A stretch of 60,224 bases of DNA, filler included, from Actinomycetota bacterium (GCA_025963875.1; 5 parts of 5 records of this genome joined end to end with filler, not necessarily neighbours in it), one strand, 5' to 3'. Counted from the first letter of the whole stretch, positions 22,890 through 48,404 are shown. A program made the numbers and translations. The notes: generated by a model not told the origin, from the sequence alone.

Positions 22890-22989
22890 NNNNNNNNNNN
22901 NNNNNNNNNNNNNNNNNNNNNNNNNNNNNNNNNTTAATTAATTAANNNNNNNNNNNNNNNNNNNNNNNNNNNNNNNNNNNNNNNNNNNN
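22890..22989. other. Artificial contig linker
   Basis: N run-TTAATTAATTAA-N run (six-frame stop spacer). Confidence 0.98.
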
Positions 22990-33789: not shown

Positions 33790-35151
33790 CTACTTCGGAT
33801 CCGGCTCGGGATCGGGCGGGCGCCCCCGGGGCAACTTTGGGATCCGCCTGTCGTTGCGGGAGAAGAACCGCATGACGTCGTTGTGCTCGACATGGATCCG
33901 ATCGGTGCGCCTGGCCCCGTAGCCCACGTCCACGTCCAGGTCGAGCTGGCCGTCGTGGGGGCCCGTCTCGATCCGCACCTTGTCGATCACCGCCCCGTCG
34001 GGCCGGCTGAACACCAGCGACTTCGACTCCGAGTCTCTGGCGAGGCCGAAGCCCCCCTCGTGGATCAGGTGGTGGTGGAACCAGCAGAGCTGGGTGAGGT
34101 TCTCGAGCGACGTCTCGCCCCCGTGCGCCCAGTGCGTGATGTGGTGGGCCTGGACGAAACGGGTCTGCCCGCAGCCCGGGAACACGCAGCCCTTGTCCCG
34201 GCACCGAAGCGCCCGGGCCATCGCGGGCGAGACCTTGCGGGTCTTGCGGCCCATCGACAGCACCTCGCCCGAGGCATCCTCGACCACGCCCACCACCGCG
34301 GCGTCGCAGGCAAGACGCCGAGCCGTCTCGGGAGCGATCTCCGGTCCGTCCTCGATCTCGCAGTGCTCGCCCTCCCCGGTCCCCGCCAGGGTCTCCGCGG
34401 ACACGTGCACGATCACCTGGGTGGCGTCCGACCCCGCCCGTGACTCCAGCCCCCGGGCAAGGCACGACTCCGCCATGGCGACGAGGGCGTCCGCCCGGTT
34501 GGCGGCCGCAGGGATCCGTGCCCGCCCGGGCGGCTGGTCGTCGGCGGCGTCGTAGACGCCGGACTGCGCATCCTCCGCCCGCAGCTGCGCCGCCGCCGCC
34601 TCCAGGGCCTGGCGAAGCACCGTCCCCGCCTCGGCAGGGAGGCGTCCCTTGAAGCAGAAGAACCCCTCCGCGTCGAAGGACCAGTGCAGCTCCCGGCCCG
34701 CAAAGGCAGCCTTGGCATCCGCATAGGAGGCGAGCACGCGCCGGTAGGACGAGACGATGCGCCCCAGCTGCGAGCCGGTGGCGACCCTGGCCATCTCCAC
34801 CATGTCAGCCTCCGTCTCGGGCGTGGCGATGCGCACCAGCGCCTTCACTGCGTGGTAGTTGAGCTGGCCCTTGCCGAACGCCTCGGTGATCGCAGGCAGC
34901 GACCGAAGTCGCCGGGCCACCCGCACCATCTCCCAGGAGGCTGCCATGTCGTAGCCGCAGCACCCCGACAGCCAGTGCGCCGCCGACTTGCAGTCCCAGG
35001 CGAATGCGGCGTCCTCCCGGGCGTCGAACTCGGCCAGCTTCAGCAGCATCCGGCACTGGGCGGCTGCGATCTGGCCAGACTCCTCCGCGATGGCATCGAC
35101 CAGCTCCCCGATGGGGAGGCCGGATGCGGAGCGAGAAGCTGAGTCGAACAT
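33790..35151 (-). CDS. DUF222 + HNH endonuclease (13E12-repeat-like)
   Basis: ARRLACD, RDKGCVFPGC, AHHITHWAHGGETSLENLTQLCWFHH. Confidence 0.92.
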   Translation of the reverse strand: MFDSASRSASGLPIGELVDAIAEESGQIAAAQCRMLLKLAEFDAREDAAFAWDCKSAAHWLSGCCGYDMAASWEMVRVARRLRSLPAITEAFGKGQLNYHAVKALVRIATPETEADMVEMARVATGSQLGRIVSSYRRVLASYADAKAAFAGRELHWSFDAEGFFCFKGRLPAEAGTVLRQALEAAAAQLRAEDAQSGVYDAADDQPPGRARIPAAANRADALVAMAESCLARGLESRAGSDATQVIVHVSAETLAGTGEGEHCEIEDGPEIAPETARRLACDAAVVGVVEDASGEVLSMGRKTRKVSPAMARALRCRDKGCVFPGCGQTRFVQAHHITHWAHGGETSLENLTQLCWFHHHLIHEGGFGLARDSESKSLVFSRPDGAVIDKVRIETGPHDGQLDLDVDVGYGARRTDRIHVEHNDVMRFFSRNDRRIPKLPRGRPPDPEPDPK

Positions 35152-35159
35152 GTGTTCGA
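35144..35159. promoter_or_regulatory. LexA SOS box
   Basis: TCGAAC-ATGT-GTTCGA, a perfect actinobacterial consensus overlapping the HNH start codon. Confidence 0.88.
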
Positions 35160-35227
35160 TTGTACCAACCTCTGCGCACGATTGCAAGCGAGAATGCAAC
35201 GTGAATAGGGAGAGGAAGGAGGCGCTG

Positions 35228-35629
35228 ATGCCGTGGGAAACGAAGTCCATTGGGGAGCACCCGGACGTTCTTGCACCGGACGGTTCAGAGGTCTATCTCG
35301 GGCTGGAATGCTCGCGGGGCGGTCTCTCCGTTTTCGTTCTCCCCGCAGGCCGAACCTCCAGGGCCATCCGGCACCGCACGATCGAGGAAGTCTGGTATTT
35401 CCTCCACGGCGAAGGTGAGATGTGGCGACGGAGCGGGGAGGCGGAGGAGATCTGCCGGGTAGGGCCGGGGGTCTTCCTCACCATTCCAACCGGCACGGCG
35501 TTTCAGTTCCGGGCCGTCGGAGAGGAACCCCTGCGGTTCGCCATCGCCACCATGCCCCCGTGGCCCGGTCCCCATGAAGCAGTGCCGGCAGAGGGACCGT
35601 GGGTCCACGACGGCGAATCTGATTCGTAA
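35228..35629 (+). CDS. Cupin-domain protein
   Basis: APDGSEV, HRTIEEVWYFLHGEGEMWR, IPTGTAFQFR, TMPPWPG. Confidence 0.88.
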   Translation: MPWETKSIGEHPDVLAPDGSEVYLGLECSRGGLSVFVLPAGRTSRAIRHRTIEEVWYFLHGEGEMWRRSGEAEEICRVGPGVFLTIPTGTAFQFRAVGEEPLRFAIATMPPWPGPHEAVPAEGPWVHDGESDS

Positions 35630-37279: not shown

Positions 37280-37710
37280 GGACGAGGTACAGCGGGTGGA
37301 GTTCCTCGGCCCCGAGGGCGACTGGCGCTGGGCCGGTCCGCTGGTGGGCTGACAGACCTCGCAAGAGAGCAGCTGCATCCACCGATCGAAGGGTCGCGCC
37401 GCAGGAAGTTCCTCTTACGGGGCGGACGACGTGATAAGGACAAAGCCCGTGGAGTGCATTATTACATCCGAAGAAGTTGTCCCGGTAGGAGGGATCGTTC
37501 TCGTATTACGGTAAATATCTGAATTTGGTTCAGAGGGTACCAATTCGACTTGGGATGCTTCCGTGACTGGATCTGCTTCGTCGGTATCCAACAGAGTTGC
37601 GATTCCAGGATCCCGGGATCCCGCGACGCCTTCTCCCTGCCTGCTGGTGAAGGGCGTCCGGAGAGGCTGGCCGTTGTTCGCCGACTGGTTCCTCCCCTTC
37701 TGGGAGAACT

Positions 37711-38913
37711 ATGAACCCTTTGGGTCCGACGCAGATGACGGCGAGTCGGCGTAACGGGCACCCGGCGTCCGGAAAGGCAAGATCCCTTCGCCCGGAGGAG
37801 AAGGGCCAGCCGCGCTCCCGACAGCTTCCACCCGGAGCAACGCCCTCAGGTTGCCGCGGTCCCGCCGGGCGGCGACGGCAATCTCAGGCGGTGTCCGTAC
37901 TGGCTGCCATGGCGGTCCTGATGAGCGTCGCATCGTGTTCGGGAGAGCGGGGGTCGCTCGGGCGAGGATCCTCGTCTCGGCCGGGACAGACCCCGGCAGC
38001 GCCCGGACCGACGGGCTCCACCTCTGCGCCGACGAGCGGCTCCGAGTCCACGGTGACAACGACGCCGCCGGCGGCAGACGCTGCCGCTGGTGACGGAACA
38101 CCTCGCTTCGCGGTCGGCACGGTTCTCCGCGACTTCACCGATACGAGCCGGCAAAGGGTCCTTCACACGATCGTCCATTTCCCAGCCAAGGGTCGGCCCG
38201 GCCAGGCCGGCACCGAGCCCGTTGGCGGGGCGTTCCCTCTGGTGCTCATGGCTCACGGCTTTCGCCTGCCCGCTGCCGGATACGAGCGCATCCTCGACAG
38301 GGTGACCGCCGCGGGCTACATCGTGGCGGCCCCGGCGTTTCCCCACACCAGCGCCGAGCGCGGCGACGGCAACCGCAGCGACATCGTCAATCAGCCAGCT
38401 GACCTGTCGTTCTTGGTCGACGCGGTGACCAGCATGGCGAAACAGCAACCGCAGCTGCTCCCACCCGTGGCCGATCCCGCACGGGTCGCCGCTCTCGGTC
38501 ATTCAGACGGCGGCCTAACAGTTTCGGCTTGGGCGTACAACAACTCCCTCAGGGACCGCCGAGTCGCCGCTGCAGTGGTGATGGCCGGAGGGATCGGGAT
38601 GTTTCCTGGCACCTACTTCGCCCCTGACTCGCCGCCGCTTCTCGCAATCCACGCCACCGCTGACCAGACCAACCCGTATTCGGCAAGCGTCAGCCTGTTC
38701 AATGCTGTGCCACCAGGGATCCCCCACTTCTTGCTGACCATCGACGGTGGCTCGCACCTGGGTCCGTACATGAACGACACCGCAATGCCCGAAGTCGGCC
38801 AAGTCATCGTGGACTTCCTTGACGGGTACTTCTTCAAGGACGCCGGCGCCCGCCAGCGATTGCCCGCTGACGCCGACCATCCCGGCATCACGACCCTGCG
38901 CAGCAAGGCCTGA
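37711..38913 (+). CDS. Alpha/beta hydrolase lipoprotein; true start probably later
   Basis: Lipobox-like VASC, FPLVLMAHG, GHSDGG nucleophile, D in HATADQ, H in GGSHL. Confidence 0.85.
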   Translation: MNPLGPTQMTASRRNGHPASGKARSLRPEEKGQPRSRQLPPGATPSGCRGPAGRRRQSQAVSVLAAMAVLMSVASCSGERGSLGRGSSSRPGQTPAAPGPTGSTSAPTSGSESTVTTTPPAADAAAGDGTPRFAVGTVLRDFTDTSRQRVLHTIVHFPAKGRPGQAGTEPVGGAFPLVLMAHGFRLPAAGYERILDRVTAAGYIVAAPAFPHTSAERGDGNRSDIVNQPADLSFLVDAVTSMAKQQPQLLPPVADPARVAALGHSDGGLTVSAWAYNNSLRDRRVAAAVVMAGGIGMFPGTYFAPDSPPLLAIHATADQTNPYSASVSLFNAVPPGIPHFLLTIDGGSHLGPYMNDTAMPEVGQVIVDFLDGYFFKDAGARQRLPADADHPGITTLRSKA

Positions 38914-39045
38914 TAGTCACAGGTGCCAGGGGAGGGACTTCGCTGACCGGCCGCAATCACTGGGGGGCCATCCCCTGCATTTGCCGTCCTCGCGTTTAAG
39001 CGCTCGGCGCGCTGGCGCATTCTGCCGACGCAGGGCCTTGCCACG

Positions 39046-39330
39046 AAAAGCAGACGCTCTACAAGCGCTGTGCGGTTTTCTAGGCTCAGAATGGGCCTGA
39101 CGTACGTATTCTTGCGAGTTCGTGCGACACGTTTATACTCATCAAGACATGGGGCCGTATCTCAGTACGTAGTGCGTCTGCTTTGCAGGTAGATAAGCGC
39201 AAACGCTGTGCATTTGTGCGTTTCCGCAGGTCGTGCATGAGCGCTGAGGCCAGAATTATCCGCTCTTCGGCGAGGCCCTGGAATGCTCGGAGATCCGCGA
39301 TCCGAGGGCGGACGGTATGAAACCATACCT
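39046..39330 (+). repeat. att-like repeat copy 1: promoter, degenerate 5' half of tRNA-Ala(UGC) (39151-39187), right arm
   Basis: Aligns by eye with copies at 41804 and 43282; TTGCGA-N16-TATACT; GGGGCCGTATCTCAGTACGTAGTGCGTCTGCTTTGCA. Confidence 0.9.
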
Positions 39331-39423
39331 TCGCCGACGGGTGGCGGGGGGGCTCGCTGACAGGGCCCTCACTGTCAATCCTGGCGTGCGTCGTCGATGA
39401 CACTCCCCTTGGGGAGCGGGCCC

Positions 39424-39505
39424 GGGGCCGACGAGCGCTGTGCCCAGAATTATCGGCTCTTCGGCGGAATCTCAGAATCACCGGAGAGCGGCGATCCGAG
39501 GGTGA
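39424..39505 (+). repeat. Partial copy (right arm only) of the att-like repeat
   Basis: GAGCGCTGTGCCCAGAATTATCGGCTCTTCGG...CCGGAGAGCGGCGATCCGAGGG. Confidence 0.8.
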
Positions 39506-39654
39506 GTGGCAACGAGCCTTCGGGCGCCACCACTTGGCACGCCTCGCTCAGGGCGCCGGCGGGCGAGGGCCGCCGATGCAGAAATCGGCGGTGGACTCCC
39601 TTGCTCGCCCTGCCCCGAAGGGCCCTCCGACCCGAGCCAAGTCTCGGGCCGGAC

Positions 39655-39790
39655 GTAGGCACTTGCCGATGCTCGATCGACAAAAGTCTGTCTATGCGGC
39701 CATAGACGTGCCAGCGGCGATGCCAAGGTCGCCGAAGAGGGTCTGCATGCCAATACGCAGGGCCTCGTAGTCGCGGTCGATGCGGGTCCA
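39655..39790 (-). mobile_element. 3' end remnant of a putative IS-like element
   Basis: WTRIDRDYEALRIGMQTLFGDLGIAAGTSMAA* plus conserved tail TTTTGTCGAT-N8-GCAAG.G.CTA; paralogue at 47476. Confidence 0.7.
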
Positions 39791-39919
39791 GGCTGCGGGC
39801 TTGCGACCCTGTCGTGGGCTGCGTAAGTGACCCTTTCTGGTTGTCTCCGACGACGCGTTCAACCGGAGCCGTGTCGATCGTCCCCCTGACCACCCGGCCC
39901 CGGAGGATACCGACCCTCC

Positions 39920-40795
39920 TCAGGGCATTGCGCTCTGGCCCCTGACCAGGTTGCCGCACGACAGAGGTGTGAAGCCCACCTGCGTGGACACGTCCGTCGT
40001 GTTGTGGACGTTCACGTACCAGGTGCTCGGGATGGCGGTGGCGGTGACGCCGGAGAAGGTCGCGGTGACCGAGCCGGTGCCGGTCGCGTCGGATTTCACG
40101 TTGGGGAGCGAGTAGACGACGGGACCCTGCGCCTCGCAGCTTCCCTCGTGGACATGGGCCGCATGGGCCGTGTTCGGGTCGAGACCGTGGACCGTCAGGG
40201 ACATCCCGAGGCTGTGAGCGGTGGGGTCGAGCGACACGACGGCCGTACCCGTCACGTCGTTGCCGGTACCGGGCACGGGCTTGAAGGCGCCCGTGAAGGT
40301 GGCGGCGTGCGAGGGATTGGAGATGTCGATGCAGGCGATGGGGCGGTACTGGTCGGCGGGGGTGAGCGCAGGTCCAGTGTGGACGTTCAGCGACCACCCG
40401 CTGGCAGGGATGCCGCCCCCGACGTTGGACACGGTGGTCGTGACGGTCGCATCACCCGTGGCGGTGGCCGTCACGGGGTCGAGCGGATAGATGACATTGC
40501 CGGTGTTGGCGCACGTTCCACTGTGGATGTGGGCAGGATGGGTCGAGTTCGGCCCGAGGCCGATCATCGAGATGCCGACCGTCAGCTTGTTGCTGGAGGA
40601 GGCCCAGGACATGGTGACGGTGCCGGTCGGCTCGTGGTCGAGCATCGCCGTTGCCGTCGAGGTGGTGGGCGTCGAGGGGGTCGCTGAACTGGTGCCGGAC
40701 GCGCTCGGCGTGGGCGATGCCGTCTGCTTGCTCGAGCACGCCCACAGGCTGGCGCTTGCGAGAACGAGAATCGTAAGAACCGCAACTCTACGCAT
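39920..40795 (-). CDS. Lipoprotein with two tandem CHRD/Cu-Zn-SOD-like domains
   Basis: LWAC lipobox; twice H.AH(I/V)H.G.C...NVH...C. Confidence 0.75.
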   Translation of the reverse strand: MRRVAVLTILVLASASLWACSSKQTASPTPSASGTSSATPSTPTTSTATAMLDHEPTGTVTMSWASSSNKLTVGISMIGLGPNSTHPAHIHSGTCANTGNVIYPLDPVTATATGDATVTTTVSNVGGGIPASGWSLNVHTGPALTPADQYRPIACIDISNPSHAATFTGAFKPVPGTGNDVTGTAVVSLDPTAHSLGMSLTVHGLDPNTAHAAHVHEGSCEAQGPVVYSLPNVKSDATGTGSVTATFSGVTATAIPSTWYVNVHNTTDVSTQVGFTPLSCGNLVRGQSAMP

Positions 40796-41205
40796 GTTTG
40801 CTCCCTCCCCGGCTACGGCAAACCGAGCTACGACAAACCGACGCACCCTCACCTTCGTCCCGTTCCTCCACAGCCGAACATCAATGAGGGTGATTCCCCT
40901 GCAACCACCGTCCTACAACCACACGGGGTCGTAACTCAAGGCGAGCCGTGGTCATGGAGGTGGGGCGGTGGTGACTGGGCCCCGGCCCGACGTGCAGCTG
41001 TCTGTCCCCACGCGTTCCGGAAACGAAACGCAGGGGACAGACACCACGGGCAGATCCTGATCCCTGACCGTGGCCCGACGGGGGCCTCCAAGGAACTCAT
41101 CTGGTTGTCCGCACGCTGTCGGGACCGGCCGAACTCAAGCTTCGTCGAAGAGCGCTACGAGCTGTTCCGCCATGCGGGCTGATGGCGAGGCGCCAAGGCC
41201 ACTGC

Positions 41206-41485
41206 CTAAAGCTGCAGCAGCAGCCGCAGGCGCTCCCCGATGGCATCCAGGACCTCGGCCGGCACCGTCCCCAGGGGGCCGGTCATTAAGCGCTCGGTCG
41301 ATACGGAACGGAGGTCTTCGCAGCGCGCCCAGCTCGTCTCGTGCAGACCTCCGTCGGGAGGGTGGACCTCGACATGGGTCGGGATCCCCCGGGCCCTGGT
41401 GGTCAGGGGGACGACGAACACCAGACCGGCGCGGCTCCGGTTGAAACGGTCAGCCGAGACCTCGACAATGTCAAGGCGCCGGCCC
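41206..41485 (-). pseudogene. PemK/MazF toxin, N-terminus lost
   Basis: VSADRFNRS...VVPLTT...CEDLRSVSTERL; no intact start and no antitoxin. Confidence 0.8.
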
Positions 41486-41803
41486 TTGACACCGGCTCAG
41501 ATAGAACGAAGGCAGGAGCCCGGGAGCGCTCCGGCAGTGCTTGCAGTACACCCGGCGGATCCAGTTCCTCTACGCCGGTCTTCCTCATCCTCGGGTCCGA
41601 ATGCGGCGGGTGTCCAACTATCTCGACTGGGCCCCGCACCGTTGGCCCCTGTGCGGTAGTGGGCGGCACGCGCCCCCCCCGTGCCCTCTTTGGCTAGCCA
41701 CCCTGGTCGACGGTGTACTTAGCGCGTGGGGGGGTGGACTCCTCCTGAGAACCAACGCCGGGCGCTCTCCGGGCCTTTCTGCTGCAAGGCCCAAACTGCG
41801 GGC

Positions 41804-42090
41804 AAAAAGCAGGCGCTGAGTTAGCGCTGTGCGATTTTCCTCGCTCAGAATGGGTGTGATCCCCGTATCCTTGCGGGTTGTCTGGTACATGGTTATACTC
41901 ATCAACGCATGGGGCCGTAGCTCAGTGGGTAGAGCGCCTGCTTTGCAAGTAGATAAGCCCAAGCGCTGTGCGTGAGTGTGTTTCCGCAGGTGGGGCCATG
42001 AGCGCTGAGGCCAGAATTATCCGCTCTTCGGAGGCATCCCAGAATCGCCGGAGAGCCGCGATCCGAAGGTGGGCGGTATGAAACACACCT
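41804..42090 (+). repeat. att-like repeat copy 2: promoter, 5' half of tRNA-Ala(UGC) (41911-41949), right arm
   Basis: TTGCGG-N17-TATACT; GGGGCCGTAGCTCAGTGGGTAGAGCGCCTGCTTTGCAAG then non-tRNA sequence. Confidence 0.92.
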
Positions 42091-42168
42091 CGCAGACCAG
42101 GTGACGGGTGTCTCTGGCGGGTCCTGACCGTCGCGATGGGCAGGTGGAGTGGAGGCGGCGGCCTCGGC

Positions 42169-42531
42169 TCAACGTTGCAGGAATACGACGGCGTCGGTCA
42201 AGGGCCTGTCCTCGTCCAGGAACTTGTCGAGGGCGCTGACAAGCGCCCCGATGAAGGCTCGATCCTGGGGGAACGCTTTGGTTGAGACGAGCACGAGGCC
42301 GGCGTGGATCCTGCCTGACGCCTTGTAGCGGTGATCCAGGGGCGTGAAGTCTTTGATGTTGGCCGTTACAAAGGCCCGGCCCTGCGCGGCTGCAGCGGCA
42401 AGGATCTCCTCGTCAGGCAGGGCCATCAGCGAGGGATCTTCGACCACCGCCATGACATCGTGGCCTCGGGACCGGAGTTGCTGGGCGATGGTGTGGCTCA
42501 GCATCTCGTCGAGCAGAAGCGTGCACGTCAC
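42169..42531 (-). CDS. DUF5615/PIN-like toxin (VapC45-type)
   Basis: LLLDEML...LRSRGHDV...DEEIL...FVTANIKDF...HAGLV. Confidence 0.88.
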   Translation of the reverse strand: MTCTLLLDEMLSHTIAQQLRSRGHDVMAVVEDPSLMALPDEEILAAAAAQGRAFVTANIKDFTPLDHRYKASGRIHAGLVLVSTKAFPQDRAFIGALVSALDKFLDEDRPLTDAVVFLQR

Positions 42532-42534
42532 CGG

Positions 42535-42981
42535 CTATCGCGAGAGAAGGTCGCGCTCATGTCGCCATGCCAGCTCGGCAGCAGTCTCGGCGTCATCAGC
42601 GAGCGCGATCTCGGCGTCGATCTCTGAGGGATGGCTCGCCCAGTAGCTCAATGCGGTCCGTACCATGCGCGCGGGCACCCCACTGTTCTCCACGACCAGG
42701 GCAACCACTTCGGCTTCGCTCAGTTCCAGTTCGGCGACGCGGGCTGACTTGATTGCTCGCATCACCTCCCATACGTCGGGGCCACCGGCGAGAGCGGCCC
42801 GGCGCCCCGTCGGACCGTCCCGGAACACGACGCCAGGATGCTCGGTCGTACGCAGTCCCTCGTCCACCAGCAGGTTGGCTGCCGCCGACAGAGAGAGGCC
42901 CGGGTGAGATGCGGCAAACGAACTGAGGCGGCGAGCCACCTCGGGGTCGAACCTCACGGGTATTGGTGATCTCCGAGCCAT
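42535..42981 (-). CDS. Cognate antitoxin (RHH-like + DUF433-like HTH)
   Basis: LVDEGLR..EHPGVVFRDGPTGRRAAL.GGPDVWEV; immediately upstream of the PIN gene. Confidence 0.85.
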   Translation of the reverse strand: MARRSPIPVRFDPEVARRLSSFAASHPGLSLSAAANLLVDEGLRTTEHPGVVFRDGPTGRRAALAGGPDVWEVMRAIKSARVAELELSEAEVVALVVENSGVPARMVRTALSYWASHPSEIDAEIALADDAETAAELAWRHERDLLSR

Positions 42982-42983
42982 CA

Positions 42984-42996
42984 ACTACAGTGTAGT
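42984..42996. promoter_or_regulatory. TA operator palindrome overlapping the -10 of a leaderless antitoxin gene
   Basis: ACTACA-G-TGTAGT; TACACT on the minus strand just before the ATG. Confidence 0.6.
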
Positions 42997-43281
42997 CGAT
43001 GGTGCTTGCAGTGTCTACAGCGAACGGGCACTCGTCGTCGCGATCGCGGGGGTGGCCAAAGGGTTGAATCGTTGGCCAATCCCGTGAGCACCTCCGCCCA
43101 GTGCGCCAGGGGCTCGAGGGTGCGGAGTAGACCTGAGGAGAGGCGCAGCTCGCCGATTGACGGACCGGGGGCACCCTCGGGCCGTCGGGAGGATGACTGG
43201 TGGCACGGGCTGGCGAAGAGAGCATCGGAGTTCTGCTGGTGTTCCGCGTGCACCGGAACACAGGCCGATATGGAACACCTC

Positions 43282-43568
43282 AAAAAAGCAGACGCTCTTC
43301 AAGCGCTGTGCGATTTATAGGCTCAGAATGGGCCTCACGCACATGTTCTTGCGAGTTTAGTGGGCCACAACTATACTCATCAACGCACGGGGCCGTAGCT
43401 CAGTTGGTAGAGCGCCTGCTTTGCAAGTAGATAAGCCCAAACGGCTGTGCGTTTATGCGTTTTCGCAGATGGGCCGTGAGCGCTGAGGCCAGAATTATCC
43501 GCTCTTCGCCGAGAGCCCAGGATCGCCTCAGAGCTCCGAACAGGTATCCCGGAGGGTGAAACCCTCCC
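43282..43568 (+). repeat. att-like repeat copy 3: promoter, 5' half of tRNA-Ala(UGC) (43389-43427), right arm
   Basis: TTGCGA-N17-TATACT; GGGGCCGTAGCTCAGTTGGTAGAGCGCCTGCTTTGCAAG then non-tRNA sequence. Confidence 0.92.
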
Positions 43569-43605
43569 TAGGCAGCCAACTGGCTCTCACGCGTTGACGT
43601 GCCGC

Positions 43606-43710
43606 TTAGCCTCTTCGCGCCCGGTCTAGGTCGGCGAGTTTGGCGCGCCGGCCGGCGTCGACGTCGGCCTGGCGGACCTACTCCCGAACCGCTGTCTCAG
43701 CCAGGTCCAT
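43606..43710 (-). mobile_element. IS3-family OrfA remnant
   Basis: DLAETAVRE*VRQADVDAGRR (Trp codon changed to TAG). Confidence 0.6.
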
Positions 43711-44374
43711 CTCTGAGGCGGAGTTGAGCTTCTGCGTGGATGCTCTCAACTTGGCTGTGTATCCCCGGGCTCTGAGGAGGAGCAGGCTTTTGGACTAAGG
43801 GCGCACGCATCAATAATGCCCTCGATATGGGACTCGCTGATATAGGTCGGGTGATGCGGGCATTCGTGGTGACCGATGAAGGTTTGACCACCTTGCTCAC
43901 CACGGTGATGCCGCATCTGAAACTAAAGTGCATCGGCAGGTCCGGCTCCGGATCGACCCGCTTGGAGCAGCGCATCATCTCACGCATGTCCATGGCGGCA
44001 CCTTTTTTGCCGCAAGTGCCCGTCTCGAGTTGCCATGGCTGTGACGATTGTAGGGCACTGGTCGGGACTCGCTCTTTCGGGCAGAGCATTGTGCACAATC
44101 GCCTCTCGCCGGGCTGCCCCACCCGTACTAGGTTGTCCAAGTGAATGTCAACCGCTCTGCCTGGCCCCGAAGGCTGAGCATGGCGAGACTTTCGGCGGTC
44201 GGCCCACTCTTCGTGCGATAGAGCGGAACCTGGCCGGCAATGTCGCTCGCGGCCGGGAGATCCAAAGTCTGCTCGGCCTTCAGTGACTCGCAGGCAACCA
44301 GGCTGTCTCACTAGTGTCAAGGGCGGATTTTGCGTAGGTCGAGTTTGAGCAGTGCGCTACGAAAGGACTGACCG

Positions 44375-47300
44375 ATGGCAATCCCCACAATTCCCAGTCT
44401 CGGACCGGCAACTCAGTCTGTGAGCACCCGTAGCACTCGGCCCTCCCCCACGAAGGCGCTCGAAGGTGCGATCCGCGCCGAGATCGGTCGGGGCATCCCG
44501 CTTTCGGACCGCCTGAGGGATGCGCTGGAACGGGCGTACGGCGCTCACCTCGACGGAGTACGGCTCCACGACGACGAGACGGCCGACCACCTCGCCGCGT
44601 CGATTCGCGCCGACGCCTTCACGGCCGGTGCCGACGTGTTCTTCCGGGCCGGATCCCTCCGCCCCGACTCGGATGCCGGGCTCGAGCTGCTCGCCCACGA
44701 GGTCGCCCACGCGGTCCAGCAGTCCGGAAGCCGTCTGCTGTCCAGTCCAGAAGTGGCCGAGTGGGAAGCCGCAGCCTTCGCCGGGGCCTTCGCCCGCGAC
44801 TGCCTGCCGGACCGCTCCCGCCGGCGCCGGGTCCGGGCACTCAGCGAGGGTGACGCCCTCGTCCTACAGTGCCATTCCTCGTGGGAGCATCGCATGCTGG
44901 GCGACCTGCGCACGGTGGACTTCGCGGCGATCGCCGCCGGTGGCGCCAACCGAAAGAACTTCCTGGAGCGCGTACAACAGTACCTTCGCATGTGGGAGAC
45001 AAACCCGAAGGCGGTCAACGCCGAGCGGATCAGGAAGGAGTTCGACAACATCCGGCCGCTCACCCTCGGGGGCAGCGGGTTGGTTGTCACCTACGGCGAG
45101 CTGAACACCCTGGCCGACTACCTTGCCTCGCCGGCCGAGCTCGACGCTCTGCCTGGGGGCTACCTTCTGCCGATCCTCCAGCAGGTGCGCCAGGAGGGGT
45201 ACGCCTGGGTCTCGTGGGTGATCGAGGACCGCTGGCTCGACAAGCAGGTCTACTTCGGCGGATTCGAAGACTCGGTGGCCGACACCTTCGGATGGGACAC
45301 CGCCGACTCAATTTGGGAGACGCGCAAGATGGACGCCTTCACCGAGGCCTTCGGGCCCCGGGGGATTGACCACTACACCGGCCTGCTCGCCCGCAACGCT
45401 TGTCACTTTGCGCCCCACTCCTGGTACCGCTGGGAGCAGTTCTACCTTCAGGCTCGAGCCTTCGCCGAAGAGGCCTACCACGCCAAGGGCGACCGTAGGG
45501 CCCGCCTGACAAACCTGGCCTGGATCCACCAGGGCTACGCCGACCACTTCCTGCAAGACTCCTTCGCGGCCGGCCACCTGGTCAACAAGACGCTGGTGAT
45601 GCAGTGGTACCTCGACTGGGTGGCCCCGACGTGGACTGCGGTGCCTGATTGGGACCTGGTCCAGTTCATGAACCTGGCACGTCAGCCGGACCTGGCCGGG
45701 CGCTCGCTCTACTCGGCGTTCACGAACCCGGCCGCCCGAGGAGACGTGCGGGATCCGCAAACCGCCAGCGAGCACTGGTCGCCGAAGAGGCGAATGCAAG
45801 TCTCAGGTGTGCGGGCCGACGGGAGCACCCAGGAAGCCTCGTACAAGCGGTGGCTGGCGTTCCTTGGCAACGGGGTGGTGCAGTTGGCCAGCAACTCCGT
45901 TCACAACCACTTCAACGATTCGTCGCTTCTGGTGTCGTCGGAAGCACACCCTCAGGCCTTCCAGATCTACGGTGACAACACGATGATCCGCGGGGGCAAC
46001 GGGTACCAGATCGCCAACGAGACGGCGCAGCTGTCGCAGAAATCCATCACTGATCTGCTCGACAAAGGCACCACTGAGGTGAATGCGGCGGACATCTTCA
46101 GACACTTCCCCACCAAGGTGCACGATCCGCAGAAGCCGGCCACGTCTCAGTCGCTTGAGGCCTGGGCCTACGGCTTCAAGGACCAGGCTGTACCCCTCTT
46201 CGACGGCGTCAAGAACCGCGCGGTCGGCGCGTTCCGCTCACGCATCGCGCCGGTGAACATCGACAATACGGGCGGCTGGCGCTGGTCCGGGATTCCCGGC
46301 AAGGCCACCGACATCGCGGTGGGCGGCGACAGGTTGGTGTGGTCGATCGGTGAGCTGGGCTCGGACGGCAACGGACCGGTCCAGCGCTGGAATCCGGCGA
46401 GCACGGCGTCGTGGGACAAGCAGGATGGCGCTGGCGTGCGCATCGCCGCTGACGGCGCGGGAGTCTTGTGGGTCGTGAACGCCGCCGGCTATTCCTACCG
46501 CAAGCCCCGCGGCGCCAAGAACTGGGAGCGCGGCCAACTCCCGAAGGTACGAGGCGTCGACGGTCTGGTCGACATCGCCGCTGGAACGGACGGGTCGGTG
46601 TGGGGCCTGGCCAAGGCCACGGTCCCGGGGGGCCACCAGTTGATGCGCTGCGTACCTGGCAACGGGACGCACACCTGGGAACCGGTGAGCGGCGCGGCGA
46701 CGGCCGTCTCGGTCGGCCCCGACGGGCTGCCGTGGGTGGTGAACGACGGGGGGGTTGTGATGAACCTGACGCCGGGCAAGGGGCCGGACCGCTTCAACGG
46801 GCCCGGGGCGGTGTGGACCGATGTCTCGCCGAACCTGCCTGGCAATGGCAAGTCCACCGACGTCGGCGTCGGCGTCGGGGCCCTGCTGCACGCCTGGGTC
46901 ACCACGGACTCGGCCATGTACGCCTGGAACGGCCGGCGCCCCAACAACCCTGCGCAGGGCACCCGCCTCCTGCTCGACTGGGAGGCTATGGGTGGAGCCG
47001 CGGTCCGCATCGCCACCGGGTACGACGGCTTGCCCTGGGTAGTGAATGCGAAGAACGACATCTATCGCCTGGTCGCCGGTGGGGAGGCCACGGCCGCGTT
47101 CACCACCTCCGACGCTGGCAAAGTGACCGGCCGGGCGGTCGCGGCTGCCGGCTCGCTGTTCCAGGGCGAGACGGTGTCGATCAACGGCTCAACGGACCTG
47201 AGCAAAGTGATCGTGGGCAACAGTGGCGCCCGCGTAAACTGGATCAAGCTCGATCGCTCGATGATCCCAGGTGTGTTCTACACGCTGTCGATCCACGGGC

Positions 47301-47479
47301 GGGGCCCGTCGGGGGTCGGCTCGGGGTCGATGTACATCTACATCGAGGACGAGGGCGGCTTCACCGAATACAAGTGGTTCTGGTCCAGCCAGGAGCACAC
47401 CCTCACCATCGACTACAACGGCACCAAGGCCGGCATCAAGCGCATCAGCTGGTCGGACAGCGGCACCGACCCTCACTAG
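44375..47479 (+). CDS. DUF4157 (eCIS core) protein with Zn-phospholipase C/HET-C-like domain, tectonin-like propeller and C-terminal beta domain
   Basis: VRLHDD...ADAFTAGADVFF...LLAHEVAHAVQQ; NACHF and YADHFLQDSFAAGH; repeated (I/V)(A/S)VG.DG.PWVVN. Confidence 0.85.
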   Translation: MAIPTIPSLGPATQSVSTRSTRPSPTKALEGAIRAEIGRGIPLSDRLRDALERAYGAHLDGVRLHDDETADHLAASIRADAFTAGADVFFRAGSLRPDSDAGLELLAHEVAHAVQQSGSRLLSSPEVAEWEAAAFAGAFARDCLPDRSRRRRVRALSEGDALVLQCHSSWEHRMLGDLRTVDFAAIAAGGANRKNFLERVQQYLRMWETNPKAVNAERIRKEFDNIRPLTLGGSGLVVTYGELNTLADYLASPAELDALPGGYLLPILQQVRQEGYAWVSWVIEDRWLDKQVYFGGFEDSVADTFGWDTADSIWETRKMDAFTEAFGPRGIDHYTGLLARNACHFAPHSWYRWEQFYLQARAFAEEAYHAKGDRRARLTNLAWIHQGYADHFLQDSFAAGHLVNKTLVMQWYLDWVAPTWTAVPDWDLVQFMNLARQPDLAGRSLYSAFTNPAARGDVRDPQTASEHWSPKRRMQVSGVRADGSTQEASYKRWLAFLGNGVVQLASNSVHNHFNDSSLLVSSEAHPQAFQIYGDNTMIRGGNGYQIANETAQLSQKSITDLLDKGTTEVNAADIFRHFPTKVHDPQKPATSQSLEAWAYGFKDQAVPLFDGVKNRAVGAFRSRIAPVNIDNTGGWRWSGIPGKATDIAVGGDRLVWSIGELGSDGNGPVQRWNPASTASWDKQDGAGVRIAADGAGVLWVVNAAGYSYRKPRGAKNWERGQLPKVRGVDGLVDIAAGTDGSVWGLAKATVPGGHQLMRCVPGNGTHTWEPVSGAATAVSVGPDGLPWVVNDGGVVMNLTPGKGPDRFNGPGAVWTDVSPNLPGNGKSTDVGVGVGALLHAWVTTDSAMYAWNGRRPNNPAQGTRLLLDWEAMGGAAVRIATGYDGLPWVVNAKNDIYRLVAGGEATAAFTTSDAGKVTGRAVAAAGSLFQGETVSINGSTDLSKVIVGNSGARVNWIKLDRSMIPGVFYTLSIHGRGPSGVGSGSMYIYIEDEGGFTEYKWFWSSQEHTLTIDYNGTKAGIKRISWSDSGTDPH

Positions 47480-47758
47480 ACGCTTGCGGTTTCTGTATCG
47501 ACAAAAAGTTGTTCATGCGGCCATGGGGGTGTTGGCGGTAAGCCCGAGATCGCCGAAGAGGGTCTGCATGCCGACGCGGAGCGCCTCGTAGTCCCGGTCG
47601 ACACGGGTCCACGCTTTGGGGGGTCGGCCCTGGTGGGGAACCCTCACGCCGGCGACGAGGGGGCCGATGACCTGGTCGCGCAGGACGCAGAGTGCGGTGA
47701 TCGTGCGGGCTGCCTCCGCAGGAACCAGGTAGCGCCGGGACCTGCCCGGCTTCTCGAC
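47476..47758 (-). mobile_element. Second, longer 3' end remnant of the same putative IS-like element
   Basis: VEKPGRSRRYLVP...LRDQVIGPL...WTRVDRDYEALRVGMQTLFGDLG...MAA* plus tail ACAACTTTTTGTCGAT...CGCAAGCGTCTAG. Confidence 0.72.
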
Positions 47759-47759
47759 G

Positions 47760-47890
47760 AGGCTCGCTTCCACTCCGCGCCGTGGCCCGCTCGCCAGCCG
47801 GCCAGCACGTGGCCGAGTTCGTGCAGCGTGGTCCCCGCCACCTGGACCAACGATTCCTCCCCTGCCGCGGCGATCTCCACCACCTCGACG
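47760..47890 (-). pseudogene. SprT-like zinc metallopeptidase fragment
   Basis: TTLHELGHVLAG..GHGAEWKRA fused to the IS remnant. Confidence 0.45.
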
Positions 47891-47935
47891 GGGCGAGACC
47901 CCCGGGGCCGCTGTTGCTCAGCCGGTCGGTAGCGG

Positions 47936-48404
47936 CTAAGGCCGGGGTGATGACGCGCCGACCCCCTCGGGCTGCTCAGGCTGGGCCGGGGCCACGATTC
48001 TGCGCACCAGTCCTGCGTCAAGGTCGTAGACGTAGCCAGCGACGGTGATGCGAGGAGACACTTTCGGTGAGGCCAGCAAGCGGGCTACGTCAGCACGAAC
48101 AGTGGCCTCGGGATCGGTTACCGCCTGGGCGGCGAGCCCCTCCTCGTTGGCACCGACTTGGGCGGCATAGGCGGAGCGGAAGCCCGGGTCGGCCAGGAAG
48201 CCCGTGCCGCAGCCGGTGTGGTGGATGACCGCCACTTCGAACAGCGGGCCCTCGGGTAGCATCGTTGCAGCCAGGAAGCCAATGAAGGCGACGTCATCGA
48301 CGACCGCCTCGGTCACTCGGCCGCCGGCGTTGCGGACCACCGCCGCGTCACCGAGCCCGATGCCGAGGAACGCTGCAGGGTCAATCCGAGGATCGAGGCA
48401 GGTG
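47936..48404 (-). CDS. Beta-class carbonic anhydrase (5' end at contig edge)
   Basis: TCLDPR, RNAGGRVT, HHTGCG, GYVYDL. Confidence 0.9.

Follow-up and report, generated by a model that had tools for sequence, protein, structure and literature searches.

Arrays of small gene cassettes can occur without an integrase, as in the arrays known as CALINs. Williams is said to have found in 2002 that the anticodon loop is a typical sublocation for tRNA integrases and that identity blocks end at the anticodon or T loop; Zhao and Williams, in the same year, reportedly described integration on the 5' side of a tRNA gene ("reversed orientation") by an integrase-bearing island. CIMEs (cis-mobilizable elements) are described, in the available part of the account, as products of ICE or IME decay that sit at the 3' end of a target gene, and a model of their site-specific accretion is given (PMC5704250). 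Tycheposons of marine cyanobacteria (Prochlorococcus) are described, in the available portion of the preprint, as using a tyrosine recombinase and att sites of about 40 nt (bioRxiv 10.1101/2020.12.28.424599). For the additive flexible genomic islands at tRNA genes of Alteromonas, the text at hand describes a repeat downstream of the inserted cassette that comprises only part of the tRNA (PMC4898812).

Here we describe a 285-base unit, present in three copies between small gene cassettes of a soil actinobacterium. Soil metagenomes show it joining many different sets of genes, a pattern suggestive of a system for swapping cassettes. The window, 60,224 nucleotides of DNA from an Actinomycetota bacterium (GCA_025963875.1), consists of five contigs stitched by N/TTAATTAATTAA linkers. 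The initial annotation had reported three same-orientation repeats of ~285 bp plus a partial arm on one contig. Repeat search and alignment confirmed the repeats and the arm, and all of them do lie on one contig; however, this array contig is only 37280-48404 (11.1 kb), the window being five contigs joined. The features of the array contig are as follows.

37711..38913, plus strand: alpha/beta-hydrolase gene (Pfam Chlorophyllase/Peptidase_S9/Hydrolase_4), upstream flank of unit 1 (type U5)
39046..39330, plus strand: unit 1 (repeat search, alignment, 31-mer search, promoter call), with hairpin 39054-39068 (minus strand), promoter-like site 39112-39139, decayed tRNA-Ala 5' half 39151-39189 and 31-mer 39239-39269
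39430..39517, plus strand: partial second right arm, without tRNA half; 31-mer with 3 mismatches at 39433-39463
39920..40852, minus strand: cassette A, CHRD / Cu-Zn-SOD-like protein (Pfam CHRD 5.3e-16, Sod_Cu 4.7e-05)
41206..41421, minus strand: cassette A, PemK/MazF toxin remnant, profile positions 39-109 only (Pfam PemK_toxin 2e-11)
41805..42090, plus strand: unit 2 (repeat, alignment, 31-mer and tRNA-pattern searches), with terminator-like hairpin 41813-41827 (minus strand), TTGCGG 41871-41876, TATACT 41894-41899, tRNA-Ala 5' half 41911-41949, variable centre 41950-41999, invariant 31-mer 42000-42030 and tail to ~42090
42169..42531, minus strand: cassette B, DUF5615 / PIN-like toxin (Pfam DUF5615 2.7e-14)
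42535..42984, minus strand: cassette B, 149-aa partner ORF, presumed antitoxin (no family match)
43283..43570, plus strand: unit 3 (repeat, alignment, 31-mer and tRNA-pattern searches, promoter call), with hairpin 43292-43306 (minus strand), promoter-like site 43349-43377, tRNA-Ala 5' half 43389-43427 and 31-mer 43478-43508
44375..47479, plus strand: eCIS_core + Tectonin protein (Pfam), same sense as the units; downstream flank type D2

The repeat search resolved the units into three co-oriented families, of 75 nt (39046/41805/43283; 60-76% identical), 123 nt (39083/41843/43321; 63-82%) and 88 nt (39236/41997/43475; 68-84%). Mean column identity in the three-way unit alignment is 84%, the partial fourth copy shows 70% identity, and the spacing from start to start is ~2760 and 1478 nt. 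Each unit comprises, in order, a minus-strand terminator-like hairpin, a promoter-like site, 39 nt of tRNA-Ala(UGC), a variable centre and a right arm containing an invariant 31-mer, which occurs four times (three exact, one with 3 mismatches) compared to 0 expected from 100 shuffles. A promoter-like TTGCGA-16/17-TATACT was predicted in two of the three units (1 and 3); in unit 2, where no promoter was called, TTGCGG-17-TATACT was found by eye. A 13-nt inverted repeat connects the left edge (AAAGCAGRCGCTC) with the tRNA D/anticodon stem, with ~105 nt between the arms. A near-invariant GCAGG follows the right arm, 83 nt past G1, in at least 45 of 47 copies of the wider family, and could by its sequence pair with CCUGC of the anticodon stem. 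Additional right arms like 39430-39517 are present in L006, L017, L018, L024, L027, L051 and L056.

The tRNA segment had been called the 5' half of tRNA-Ala(UGC), stopping at the anticodon loop, and this call stands. Copies 2 and 3 match the 37-nt 5'-half pattern exactly, and copy 1, as read from the alignment, has 6 mismatches to copy 2 over the 39 positions. Genuine tRNA-Ala contigs part from unit 3 after 43427, which is tRNA position 39, one base beyond the anticodon loop, and annotated phage tRNA-Ala genes match the unit by BLAST over query positions 110-153 only. The Rfam tRNA model scores 25.3-25.6 bits, below the cut-off of 29, because the 3' side is unpaired. The 3' half, already reported missing, was likewise not found in the window, where ARAGORN detected 0 tRNA genes. 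Intact tRNAs also numbered 0 in 72 fetched loci, which were chosen by a right-arm pattern that a terminal tRNA copy should lack and include no array end.

Pfam agrees with the cargo calls of the initial annotation for the hydrolase, CHRD/Sod_Cu, PemK remnant, DUF5615/PIN-like and eCIS_core+Tectonin genes. Cassettes A and B, 1.2-2.5 kb in size, each have a unit on either side and contain cargo genes only. The genes of these two-unit-bounded cassettes lie on the strand opposite to the unit, with promoters of their own; one promoter-like site lies ahead of the cassette B partner ORF (43017-42989, minus strand). Beside the stack, the hydrolase and eCIS genes read in the sense direction, and unit 1 has a P-like left arm; the contig thus shows neither end of the array. 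The U5 hydrolase flank also adjoins a unit in L002 and L067, with different downstream flanks. Copies of toxin-antitoxin cassette B, 96-97% identical, occur in L010, L016, L020, L038 and L064/L065 with differing neighbours, and a unit is followed by the D2 flank in L023, L040 and, over the first ~230 nt only, L002.

The repeat was also sought in related DNA. Its right-arm pattern matches 70 loci in soil metagenomes, and nhmmer detects the unit in 67 of these. The transcribed part has 47 distinct versions, 46 of which carry an almost perfect 39-nt tRNA half. From the tRNA half through the right arm, copies are mostly at least 90% identical; the left arm is less conserved. The initial annotation had named random orientation as contrary to its reading, and the copies are co-oriented in 13 of the 13 sources with at least two. 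The flanks carry toxin-antitoxin pairs, MNT, Schlafen/AlbA, AAA_16/NACHT, ISAzo13 transposases, MarR, MFS and eCIS genes, a cargo that is typical of mobile cassettes. Short motifs common to both arms keep one orientation. Among 65 anchored units, TTATCNGCTCTTC lies at +105 in 61 and at -90/-110 in 13, AGCGCTGTGCR at about -85 in ~28 and at +50 in 36, and YCAGAATSG at -65 in 17 and at +125 in 40.

As the initial annotation had anticipated, cargo varies: comparison of cassette order across related DNA gave 36 distinct flank combinations, 8 of them replicated in at least two assemblies. Downstream type D0, for instance, is preceded by U1, U4 and U8, each pairing occurring in two assemblies. The 28 junctions seen once may be chimeras that assembly created across the repeat. 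The arms were compared in 47 pairs of loci sharing only the upstream flank, 38 sharing only the downstream flank and 1072 unrelated pairs. Where the upstream flank alone is shared, the left arm shows 0.3-2.0 mismatches per 15 nt (3.8-10.1 in unrelated pairs) and the right arm 3.2-7.6 (3.6-6.9 in unrelated pairs). Pairs sharing only the downstream flank show the reverse, with right arms alike and left arms at the unrelated level. The left arm is therefore inherited with the upstream flank and the right arm with the downstream flank; the centre (41955-41999) is linked to neither. This sequence pattern is as would be expected for P-O-P' hybrid junctions and supports that interpretation. In the 12 best-fitting triples, exchange points fall in the tRNA half (7), the centre (4) and the right arm (1), and of 8 distinct junctions, one has its exchange in the left arm and another has it in the tail. 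Exchange points thus span about 90-150 nt, with no single place. As they are scattered, homologous recombination between units accounts for the shuffling equally well. The attP-like, serial-insertion reading of the initial annotation is partly supported, by the variable cargo, the co-orientation, the arm linkage, the anticodon-loop boundary and the lack of a recombinase in the flanks searched, but not by the exchange points, which do not fall at one place.

The reading we favour, at slightly better than even confidence, is that integrase-less cassettes are stacked on the 5' side of tRNA-Ala and mobilised in trans, the units being the hybrid, attP-like junctions between them. What is seen directly is the anatomy of the unit, its family, the tie of each arm to its own flank, the variable cargo and the lack of a linked recombinase; we infer insertion at a real tRNA-Ala gene, the enzyme, a circular intermediate and the point of crossover. 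The right arm (centre, invariant 31-mer, CAGAAT box and tail) would be the left end of the following cassette, while the left arm (minus-strand terminator, CAGAAT box and promoter) together with the tRNA-Ala 5' half would be the right end of the preceding one; the two ends joined would resemble an attP site (P-O-P'). Acting on a circular cassette with such a site, a site-specific recombinase from another locus would insert it in the 5' portion of tRNA-Ala(UGC), at the anticodon loop or close to it. The tRNA would stay intact because the arriving cassette would supply a promoter and a new 5' half. The displaced old 5' half would be left behind as a unit, and successive insertions would build a co-oriented stack. 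Unit-unit recombination, site-specific or homologous, may then delete and reshuffle cassettes.

Consistent with the initial report of no recombinase on the contig, Pfam found none in 20 array-contig ORFs. The same held elsewhere, with no match to Phage_integrase, Resolvase or Recombinase in 150 flank ORFs (25 of them rescanned at a laxer cut-off), in 37 other window ORFs or in 7 ORFs of contig C265 of G001. Circles of the kind suggested at the outset did not turn up, the contigs of 4 runs containing neither a circle nor a deletion joint.

The scatter of exchange points over the most conserved 90-150 nt, instead of one site, is what would be seen if the unit were a dispersed module, either a small RNA gene or a regulatory or insulator block, shuffled by RecA-type recombination in its near-identical core. 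A dedicated recombinase and a tRNA anchor would then be unnecessary and the tRNA half a fossil, in keeping with the lack of either a recombinase or an intact tRNA in the window and flanks searched. Every unit also has a promoter-like and a terminator-like site, and RNA-library contigs over 41836-41915 and 41949-42111 of unit 2 give a weak hint, with depths of 2.3-14.6 compared to 2.4-4.5 for cargo contigs. However, this explanation does not account for a unit copy between each pair of cassettes, for co-orientation in every multi-copy source, for a near-perfect 39-nt tRNA half that would be functionless, or for a tRNA likeness ending exactly at the anticodon loop, and we consider it unlikely. 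A still less probable view takes the RNA itself as the functional product: a ~190-nt transcript with a tRNA-Ala-like 5' domain, an expanded anticodon arm that CCUGC/GCAGG would close and a conserved 3' domain, which could act as a guide or bridge RNA steering a recombinase to tRNA-Ala, as a regulator or as a decoy. The transcribed part is indeed much more conserved than the promoter arm, GCAGG is nearly always kept and the unit is covered by RNA-library contigs. Furthermore, helix columns 60, 82 and 99, each with an alternative standard pair in at least 12 sequences, change only to G-U/A-U, and 98% of cells are paired. However, none of the 26 predicted pairs shows a compensatory change, the observed score is reached by 500 of 500 shuffles, and the RNA folding energy is no better than that of shuffles (z-score +0.21). 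Rfam 15 gives only tRNA, below the gathering score; L018, L028 and the partial copy in the window have lost the G-C pair that closes the 31-mer hairpin; and the 5' and 3' parts are inherited separately.

Numerous copies in varied contexts, together with the 13-nt inverted repeat, might also suggest a small non-autonomous transposable element (MITE or tRNA-derived SINE type) inserted repeatedly between genes. We regard this as very improbable. The inverted repeat is not terminal, as the right arm lies outside it, and the repeat search found no terminal inverted repeat of at least 30 nt. Copies within arrays are all co-oriented and the unit halves are inherited with different flanks. Furthermore, the difference between L002 and the window amounts to two complete cassettes together with two units, rather than a single unit.

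Beyond the junctions themselves, it is conceivable, though on present evidence doubtful, that soil Actinomycetota possess a dedicated integron-like gene-capture platform at tRNA-Ala(UGC), with a shared pool of 1-3-kb cassettes and the recombinase elsewhere. If so, this environmental pool would carry toxin-antitoxin, defence, regulator and secreted-protein genes, and every cassette would bring a complete 285-bp site in which protein-binding arms accompany a terminator, a promoter and a spare tRNA 5' half. The recombinase, which was not recognised in any flank and may be of a kind not yet described, would insert and reshuffle the cassettes, and the tRNA-like transcript from each junction could have a role in selecting sites or in control.

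Like chromosomal integrons and CALINs, the array consists of small co-oriented cassettes in which toxin-antitoxin genes are frequent and which are delimited by recombination sites; cassette order differs between strains and the integrase can be absent. IntI, which marks integrons, was not found on the contig or flanks; a CALIN needs none, so this alone does not speak against a CALIN. Unlike attC, the 285-bp unit carries a promoter and a tRNA half and is not an imperfect palindrome, its only long inverted repeat being 13 nt; the minus-strand DNA fold has a z-score of -2.0, with 7 of 200 shuffles folding as well. Unlike integron cassettes, genes between two units point against the unit and are served by promoters of their own. 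As in reversed-orientation tRNA integration, the element would have to replace the 5' part of the tRNA gene and therefore supply a promoter, whereas the island that Zhao and Williams reportedly described bears an integrase and the elements here are integrase-less mini-cassettes in a stack. Of the hallmarks of tRNA-targeting islands, direct repeats of a tRNA segment and a boundary at the anticodon loop are present here, and no integrase in or beside the element was found in the ORFs scanned.

Tycheposons likewise integrate at tRNA genes, with nothing more than an incomplete tRNA copy between neighbours and with remnants and partial tRNAs accumulating in islands, but the available portion of that account does not mention a conserved 285-bp junction with promoter and arms. 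Nor does it support the earlier statement that tycheposons carry the proximal half, "proximal" there being the island end beside the tRNA (bioRxiv 10.1101/2020.12.28.424599). No tycheposon-type tyrosine recombinase, replication or packaging module was found in the array-contig and flank ORFs scanned. Conserved arms or a promoter are also not described for the Alteromonas islands in the text at hand (PMC4898812). CIMEs and tandem tRNA arrays, as far as the available account goes, are similarly att-bounded elements without integration genes, stacked at one tRNA with chimeric att sites between them, and a related integrase could move them (PMC5704250). Here, integration and transfer genes are absent, with no integrase, relaxase or transfer-gene remnants in the flanks scanned, and att-like units are kept on both sides of cassettes A and B. 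Unlike the CIMEs of that account (PMC5704250), these are one-operon cassettes of 1.2-2.5 kb with a 5' tRNA half that has its own promoter, and the 285-bp junction module is strongly constrained across the 47 distinct copies. The small size and conserved junction may favour cassettes built as such over decay of an ICE or IME.

The array sits on an 11.1-kb piece of the window (37280-48404). The window comprises five contigs joined by runs of N around TTAATTAATTAA at 22934, 37224, 48449 and 54186, so gene neighbourhood across these positions is meaningless. A repeat search of the window recovered three co-oriented copies of a composite repeat (hereafter, the unit) starting at 39046, 41805 and 43283, together with a partial right arm, confirming the repeats and partial arm reported in the initial annotation. 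Aligned to one another, the three copies span about 290 columns, with a mean identity of 84% per column, and the 31-mer GAGCGCTGAGGCCAGAATTATCCGCTCTTCG has three exact occurrences plus one with three mismatches, compared to zero expected. Pfam agreed with the gene identities proposed earlier and, as also stated there, found no recombinase on the contig. The partial arm and the elements of unit 2 are:

39430-39517: partial right arm, from the repeat search
41827-41813, minus strand: left edge of unit 2, a terminator-like hairpin and T run
between the left-edge hairpin and the promoter-like site: first CAGAAT box of unit 2
41871-41899: promoter-like site of unit 2, located by eye (called in units 1 and 3; TTGCGA/G-16/17-TATACT over the three units)
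from the promoter-like site to the tRNA half: 11-nt leader of unit 2
41911-41949: tRNA half of unit 2
41950-41999: centre of unit 2, with an 8-nt tandem repeat (GTGCGTTT twice)
42000-42030: invariant 31-mer of unit 2
after the 31-mer: second CAGAAT box of unit 2, then a variable tail

A terminator scan placed the terminator-like hairpin at the equivalent position in all three units. Read by eye and then folded, the left edge is an inverted copy of the tRNA D/anticodon-stem segment (AAAGCAGRCGCTC versus GAGCGYCTGCTTT). Loci L018 and L068 (L numbers denote unit-holding or pattern-matching loci, mostly from soil metagenomes) have a second type of left arm, in which the promoter is TTGACA-17-TATCTA and two AGTTATCAGCTCTTC boxes lie in tandem; it is joined to the usual tRNA half and right arm. 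These left arms retain AGCGCTGTGCG and a tandem pair of TTATCAGCTCTTC boxes but differ in promoter. At the DNA level, common boxes are found in both arms of the unit in one orientation, and they look like arm-type protein-binding sites. A uniform 'GAAA' terminal hairpin was dropped as a candidate terminator, as the folds of the 47 tails differ. Repeated TGTTCC/GGAACA boxes lie directly upstream of unit 3 (43240-43278) and just upstream of the left arm in L006, L007, L009, L010, L016, L017, L048, L050, L055, L061 and L064. They span several distinct upstream-flank types and may be the operator of the cassette's own promoter.

Other repeats were seen in the window. The CHRD gene lies between inverted repeats of 46 and 37 nt (39843-39916 and 41376-41460; 85% and 76% complementary). 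The right copy is within the PemK remnant and the left, when read by eye, specifies a degenerate peptide resembling PemK on the opposite strand; either two oppositely oriented PemK fragments or an inversion could account for them. A 156-nt direct repeat (39656-39811 and 47477-47632, 74% identical) resembles the remnant of a gene: the minus strand of each copy encodes a common C-terminal peptide of about 40 aa (…AWTR(I/V)DRDYEALR(I/V)GMQTLFGDLG…; partly our own translation), which is followed by a terminator-like hairpin at 39707-39690 and shows no likeness to the ISAzo13 transposase of L002. A neighbouring contig of the window encodes a DUF222 protein (33793-35250, minus strand), a family common in Actinomycetota.

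The proposed 5' half of tRNA-Ala(UGC) was borne out, as copies 2 and 3 contain an exact 37-nt match. In copy 1 the half is decayed: read off the alignment, 6 of its 39 positions differ from those of copy 2. Resemblance to genuine tRNA-Ala stops at position 39. ARAGORN found no tRNA in the window, and the Rfam tRNA model scored the units at 25.3-25.6 bits, below the threshold of 29, because the acceptor 5' strand has no pairing partner. Since no T arm or 3' acceptor strand follows, we dropped a group I intron, a split tRNA, a tmRNA and a complete but odd tRNA as candidates.

Searching metagenomes with a 23-nt degenerate right-arm pattern yielded 70 soil-metagenome loci, and an HMM built from the three window copies detected the unit in 67. 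The remaining three (L033, L066, L069) have the pattern without the unit and are therefore chance matches. The transcribed part is represented by 47 distinct sequences, and the tRNA half is near-perfect in 46 of these 47 copies. Identity is at least 90% in most columns between the tRNA start and the far end of the right arm, the exceptions being the centre and some of the right arm; conservation of the promoter arm is much lower. All 13 sources with at least two copies (counting L063-L065 as one contig) have them co-oriented. Locus words occur at a share of at least 0.41 in 17 soil DNA runs from 12 studies.

Outside metagenomes the unit is scarce. The right-arm pattern had zero matches in the public genome collection, and a junction pattern matched twice, once in a true partial copy at the end of a contig (L072) and once by chance (L071). 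Two patterns had no match in viral contigs, and in plasmids and phages the tRNA segment alone matched, to annotated tRNA-Ala genes. The partial copy is the only one in its genome, G001, on the 6.2-kb contig C265; 40 relatives of G001 have genuine tRNA halves only. The genome's own tRNA-Ala(UGC), downstream of what was identified by eye as the end of a GreA-like gene, has no left arm and mismatches the unit's half at 7 of the 39 positions (hand count), which is why C265 may be mis-binned in this MAG labelled Bacillota. The seven ORFs of C265 have no Pfam match, and five of these also have no NCBIfam or PADLOC match. In the centre of the C265 copy (L073, about 1585-1620), GTGCGTTA occurs four times, compared to two 8-mers elsewhere, an expansion that looks like slippage.

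The units join different flanks in different contigs. Clustering of 150-nt flanks (BLAST, at least 80% identity over at least 50 nt) gave 27 upstream (U) and 31 downstream (D) types in 36 junctions. Type U0 is joined to five downstream types, the window's U1 to four and its hydrolase flank to three, while D0 is joined to four upstream types. As assemblers can mis-join across a 285-bp repeat, we checked recurrence: 8 of the 36 junctions recur in independent assemblies, including D0 after each of U1, U4 and U8 in two assemblies. The other 28, seen in one contig each, could be assembly chimeras. The toxin-antitoxin cassette between units 2 and 3 is present at 96-97% identity in L010, L016, L020, L038 and L064/L065 with other neighbours. 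In L002, the window's hydrolase flank meets its D2 (eCIS) flank through a single unit, and therefore both window cassettes are absent. Cargo between units thus varies across related DNA, in contrast to the invariant cargo that the initial annotation had named as one contrary outcome.

Each arm follows its own flank. In pairs sharing only the upstream flank type, the left arm has 0.3-2.0 mismatches per 15 nt, compared to 3.8-10.1 in unrelated pairs, and the right arm is at the unrelated level; pairs sharing only the downstream flank show the reverse. The centre (41955-41999) is linked to neither flank, and the tRNA half is too conserved for this comparison. We also compared 78 triples in which one unit shares its upstream flank with a second and its downstream flank with a third. 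Where the fit was at least 95% (12 triples), the switch falls in the tRNA half (7), centre (4) or right arm (1). Its position varies across eight distinct junctions, with the left arm (L002) and the tail as extremes. The unit is thus a joint of two independently inherited halves, although the joints are not at one nucleotide.

The cargo was surveyed in 150 of 190 called flank ORFs, after dropping those shorter than 104 aa and four unit-less loci. It is heterogeneous, comprising a DUF5615/PIN-like toxin with its partner, HTH_66/DUF433, MNT-type nucleotidyltransferases, Schlafen/AlbA_2, AAA_16 and NACHT-like NTPases, two ISAzo13-type transposases, eCIS_core, and MarR, MFS, GNAT, methyltransferase and LeuA-family genes. 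No integrase, resolvase or other recombinase family was found among the 150 ORFs, and no recombinase in a laxer rescan of 25 of these larger ORFs that had no earlier match, in the other 37 window ORFs or on C265. In seven cassettes bounded by two units (the window's two and those of L006, L010, L027, L062 and L064), the called ORFs are antisense to the unit; family support among these is confined to the window's two and the DUF5615 cassettes. The genes lying outside the stack, for the hydrolase and the eCIS protein, are in the sense orientation. The LeuA-family (isopropylmalate/homocitrate synthase) gene lies, cassette-like, between two units on a 10.3-kb metagenome contig (L063-L065); if it is a cassette, metabolic paralogues may also be cargo.

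Contigs from two DNA and two RNA runs contained no circle or deletion joint, including the circle joining copies 2 and 3 that the initial annotation had proposed to look for. Two junctions were seen in them: the first connects corresponding left-arm positions of units 2 and 1, and the second, with a low depth of 2.7, leads backward from 42809 to 41561. High depth over 43316-43499, with loose ends at 43427, was rejected as a sign of an array end or expression because it comes from other organisms' genuine tRNA-Ala genes.

We consider it on balance probable that the units are P-O-P' junctions (left arm, core, right arm, as in attP) produced by serial insertion of circular cassettes into the 5' part of a tRNA gene. 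Several observations fit this: the arms are inherited with their respective flanks, similarity to genuine tRNA-Ala extends no further than position 39, every spare half is preceded by a promoter, all copies are co-oriented, and the cargo is small, variable and integrase-free. Cassettes would enter one by one, each supplying a promoter and a 5' half so that the tRNA stays whole, and selection at each insertion would have kept the half near-perfect in 46 of 47 copies. The attP-like reading of the initial annotation is thus partly supported: the arm-flank linkage and variable cargo favor it, but the sequences surveyed yielded no enzyme, intact terminal tRNA, circle or defined crossover. The spread of the exchange points shows that homologous recombination or gene conversion between units also acts. 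The same spread would favor such exchange as the sole process, which we regard as unlikely.

That the unit is a functional tRNA-like RNA seems distinctly improbable. In RNAalifold predictions the 31-mer forms a hairpin, and the CCUGC of the anticodon stem pairs with a GCAGG that lies 45 nt downstream and hardly varies. Two stretches of unit 2, 41836-41915 and 41949-42111, are covered by contigs from a single RNA library. This coverage only hints at transcription of unit 2, as expected for an RNA and for a DNA site alike. However, none of the 26 predicted pairs shows compensatory changes, all 500 column shuffles reach the observed covariation, and the transcript folds no better than shuffled sequences (z +0.21). 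A MITE-like repeat is very improbable; both this and the functional RNA fit less well than P-O-P' junctions.

The integron, the classic system by which bacteria accumulate single-gene cassettes and reorder them, is essentially a Gram-negative feature. If serial insertion is correct, abundant uncultured soil actinobacteria have a second route to cassette arrays, unrelated to integrons, in which a tRNA gene is the dock and a promoter-bearing spare tRNA half the price of entry. It would explain part of the strain-level variation in gene content in these bacteria, point to a recombinase with a long, well-defined site, and make the 31-mer and tRNA/arm junction a sequence tag for harvesting the cassette pool from metagenomes. 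Read conservatively, the array is still a clear natural example of 5'-side tRNA integration, with the insertion itself inferred. Word searches of open-access main text turned up neither the 285-bp unit nor any cassette array of this kind in Actinomycetota. According to the accessible text of PMC6563490 (after Zhao and Williams 2002), integration on the 5' side of tRNA genes is considerably less frequent. Tandem stacks at tRNA sites, with integrase-less elements kept between att sites, are described in the accessible part of PMC5704250 as CIMEs and accretion. Related cases, as far as the available portions of these sources describe them, are tycheposon islands (bioRxiv 10.1101/2020.12.28.424599) and additive islands (PMC4898812).
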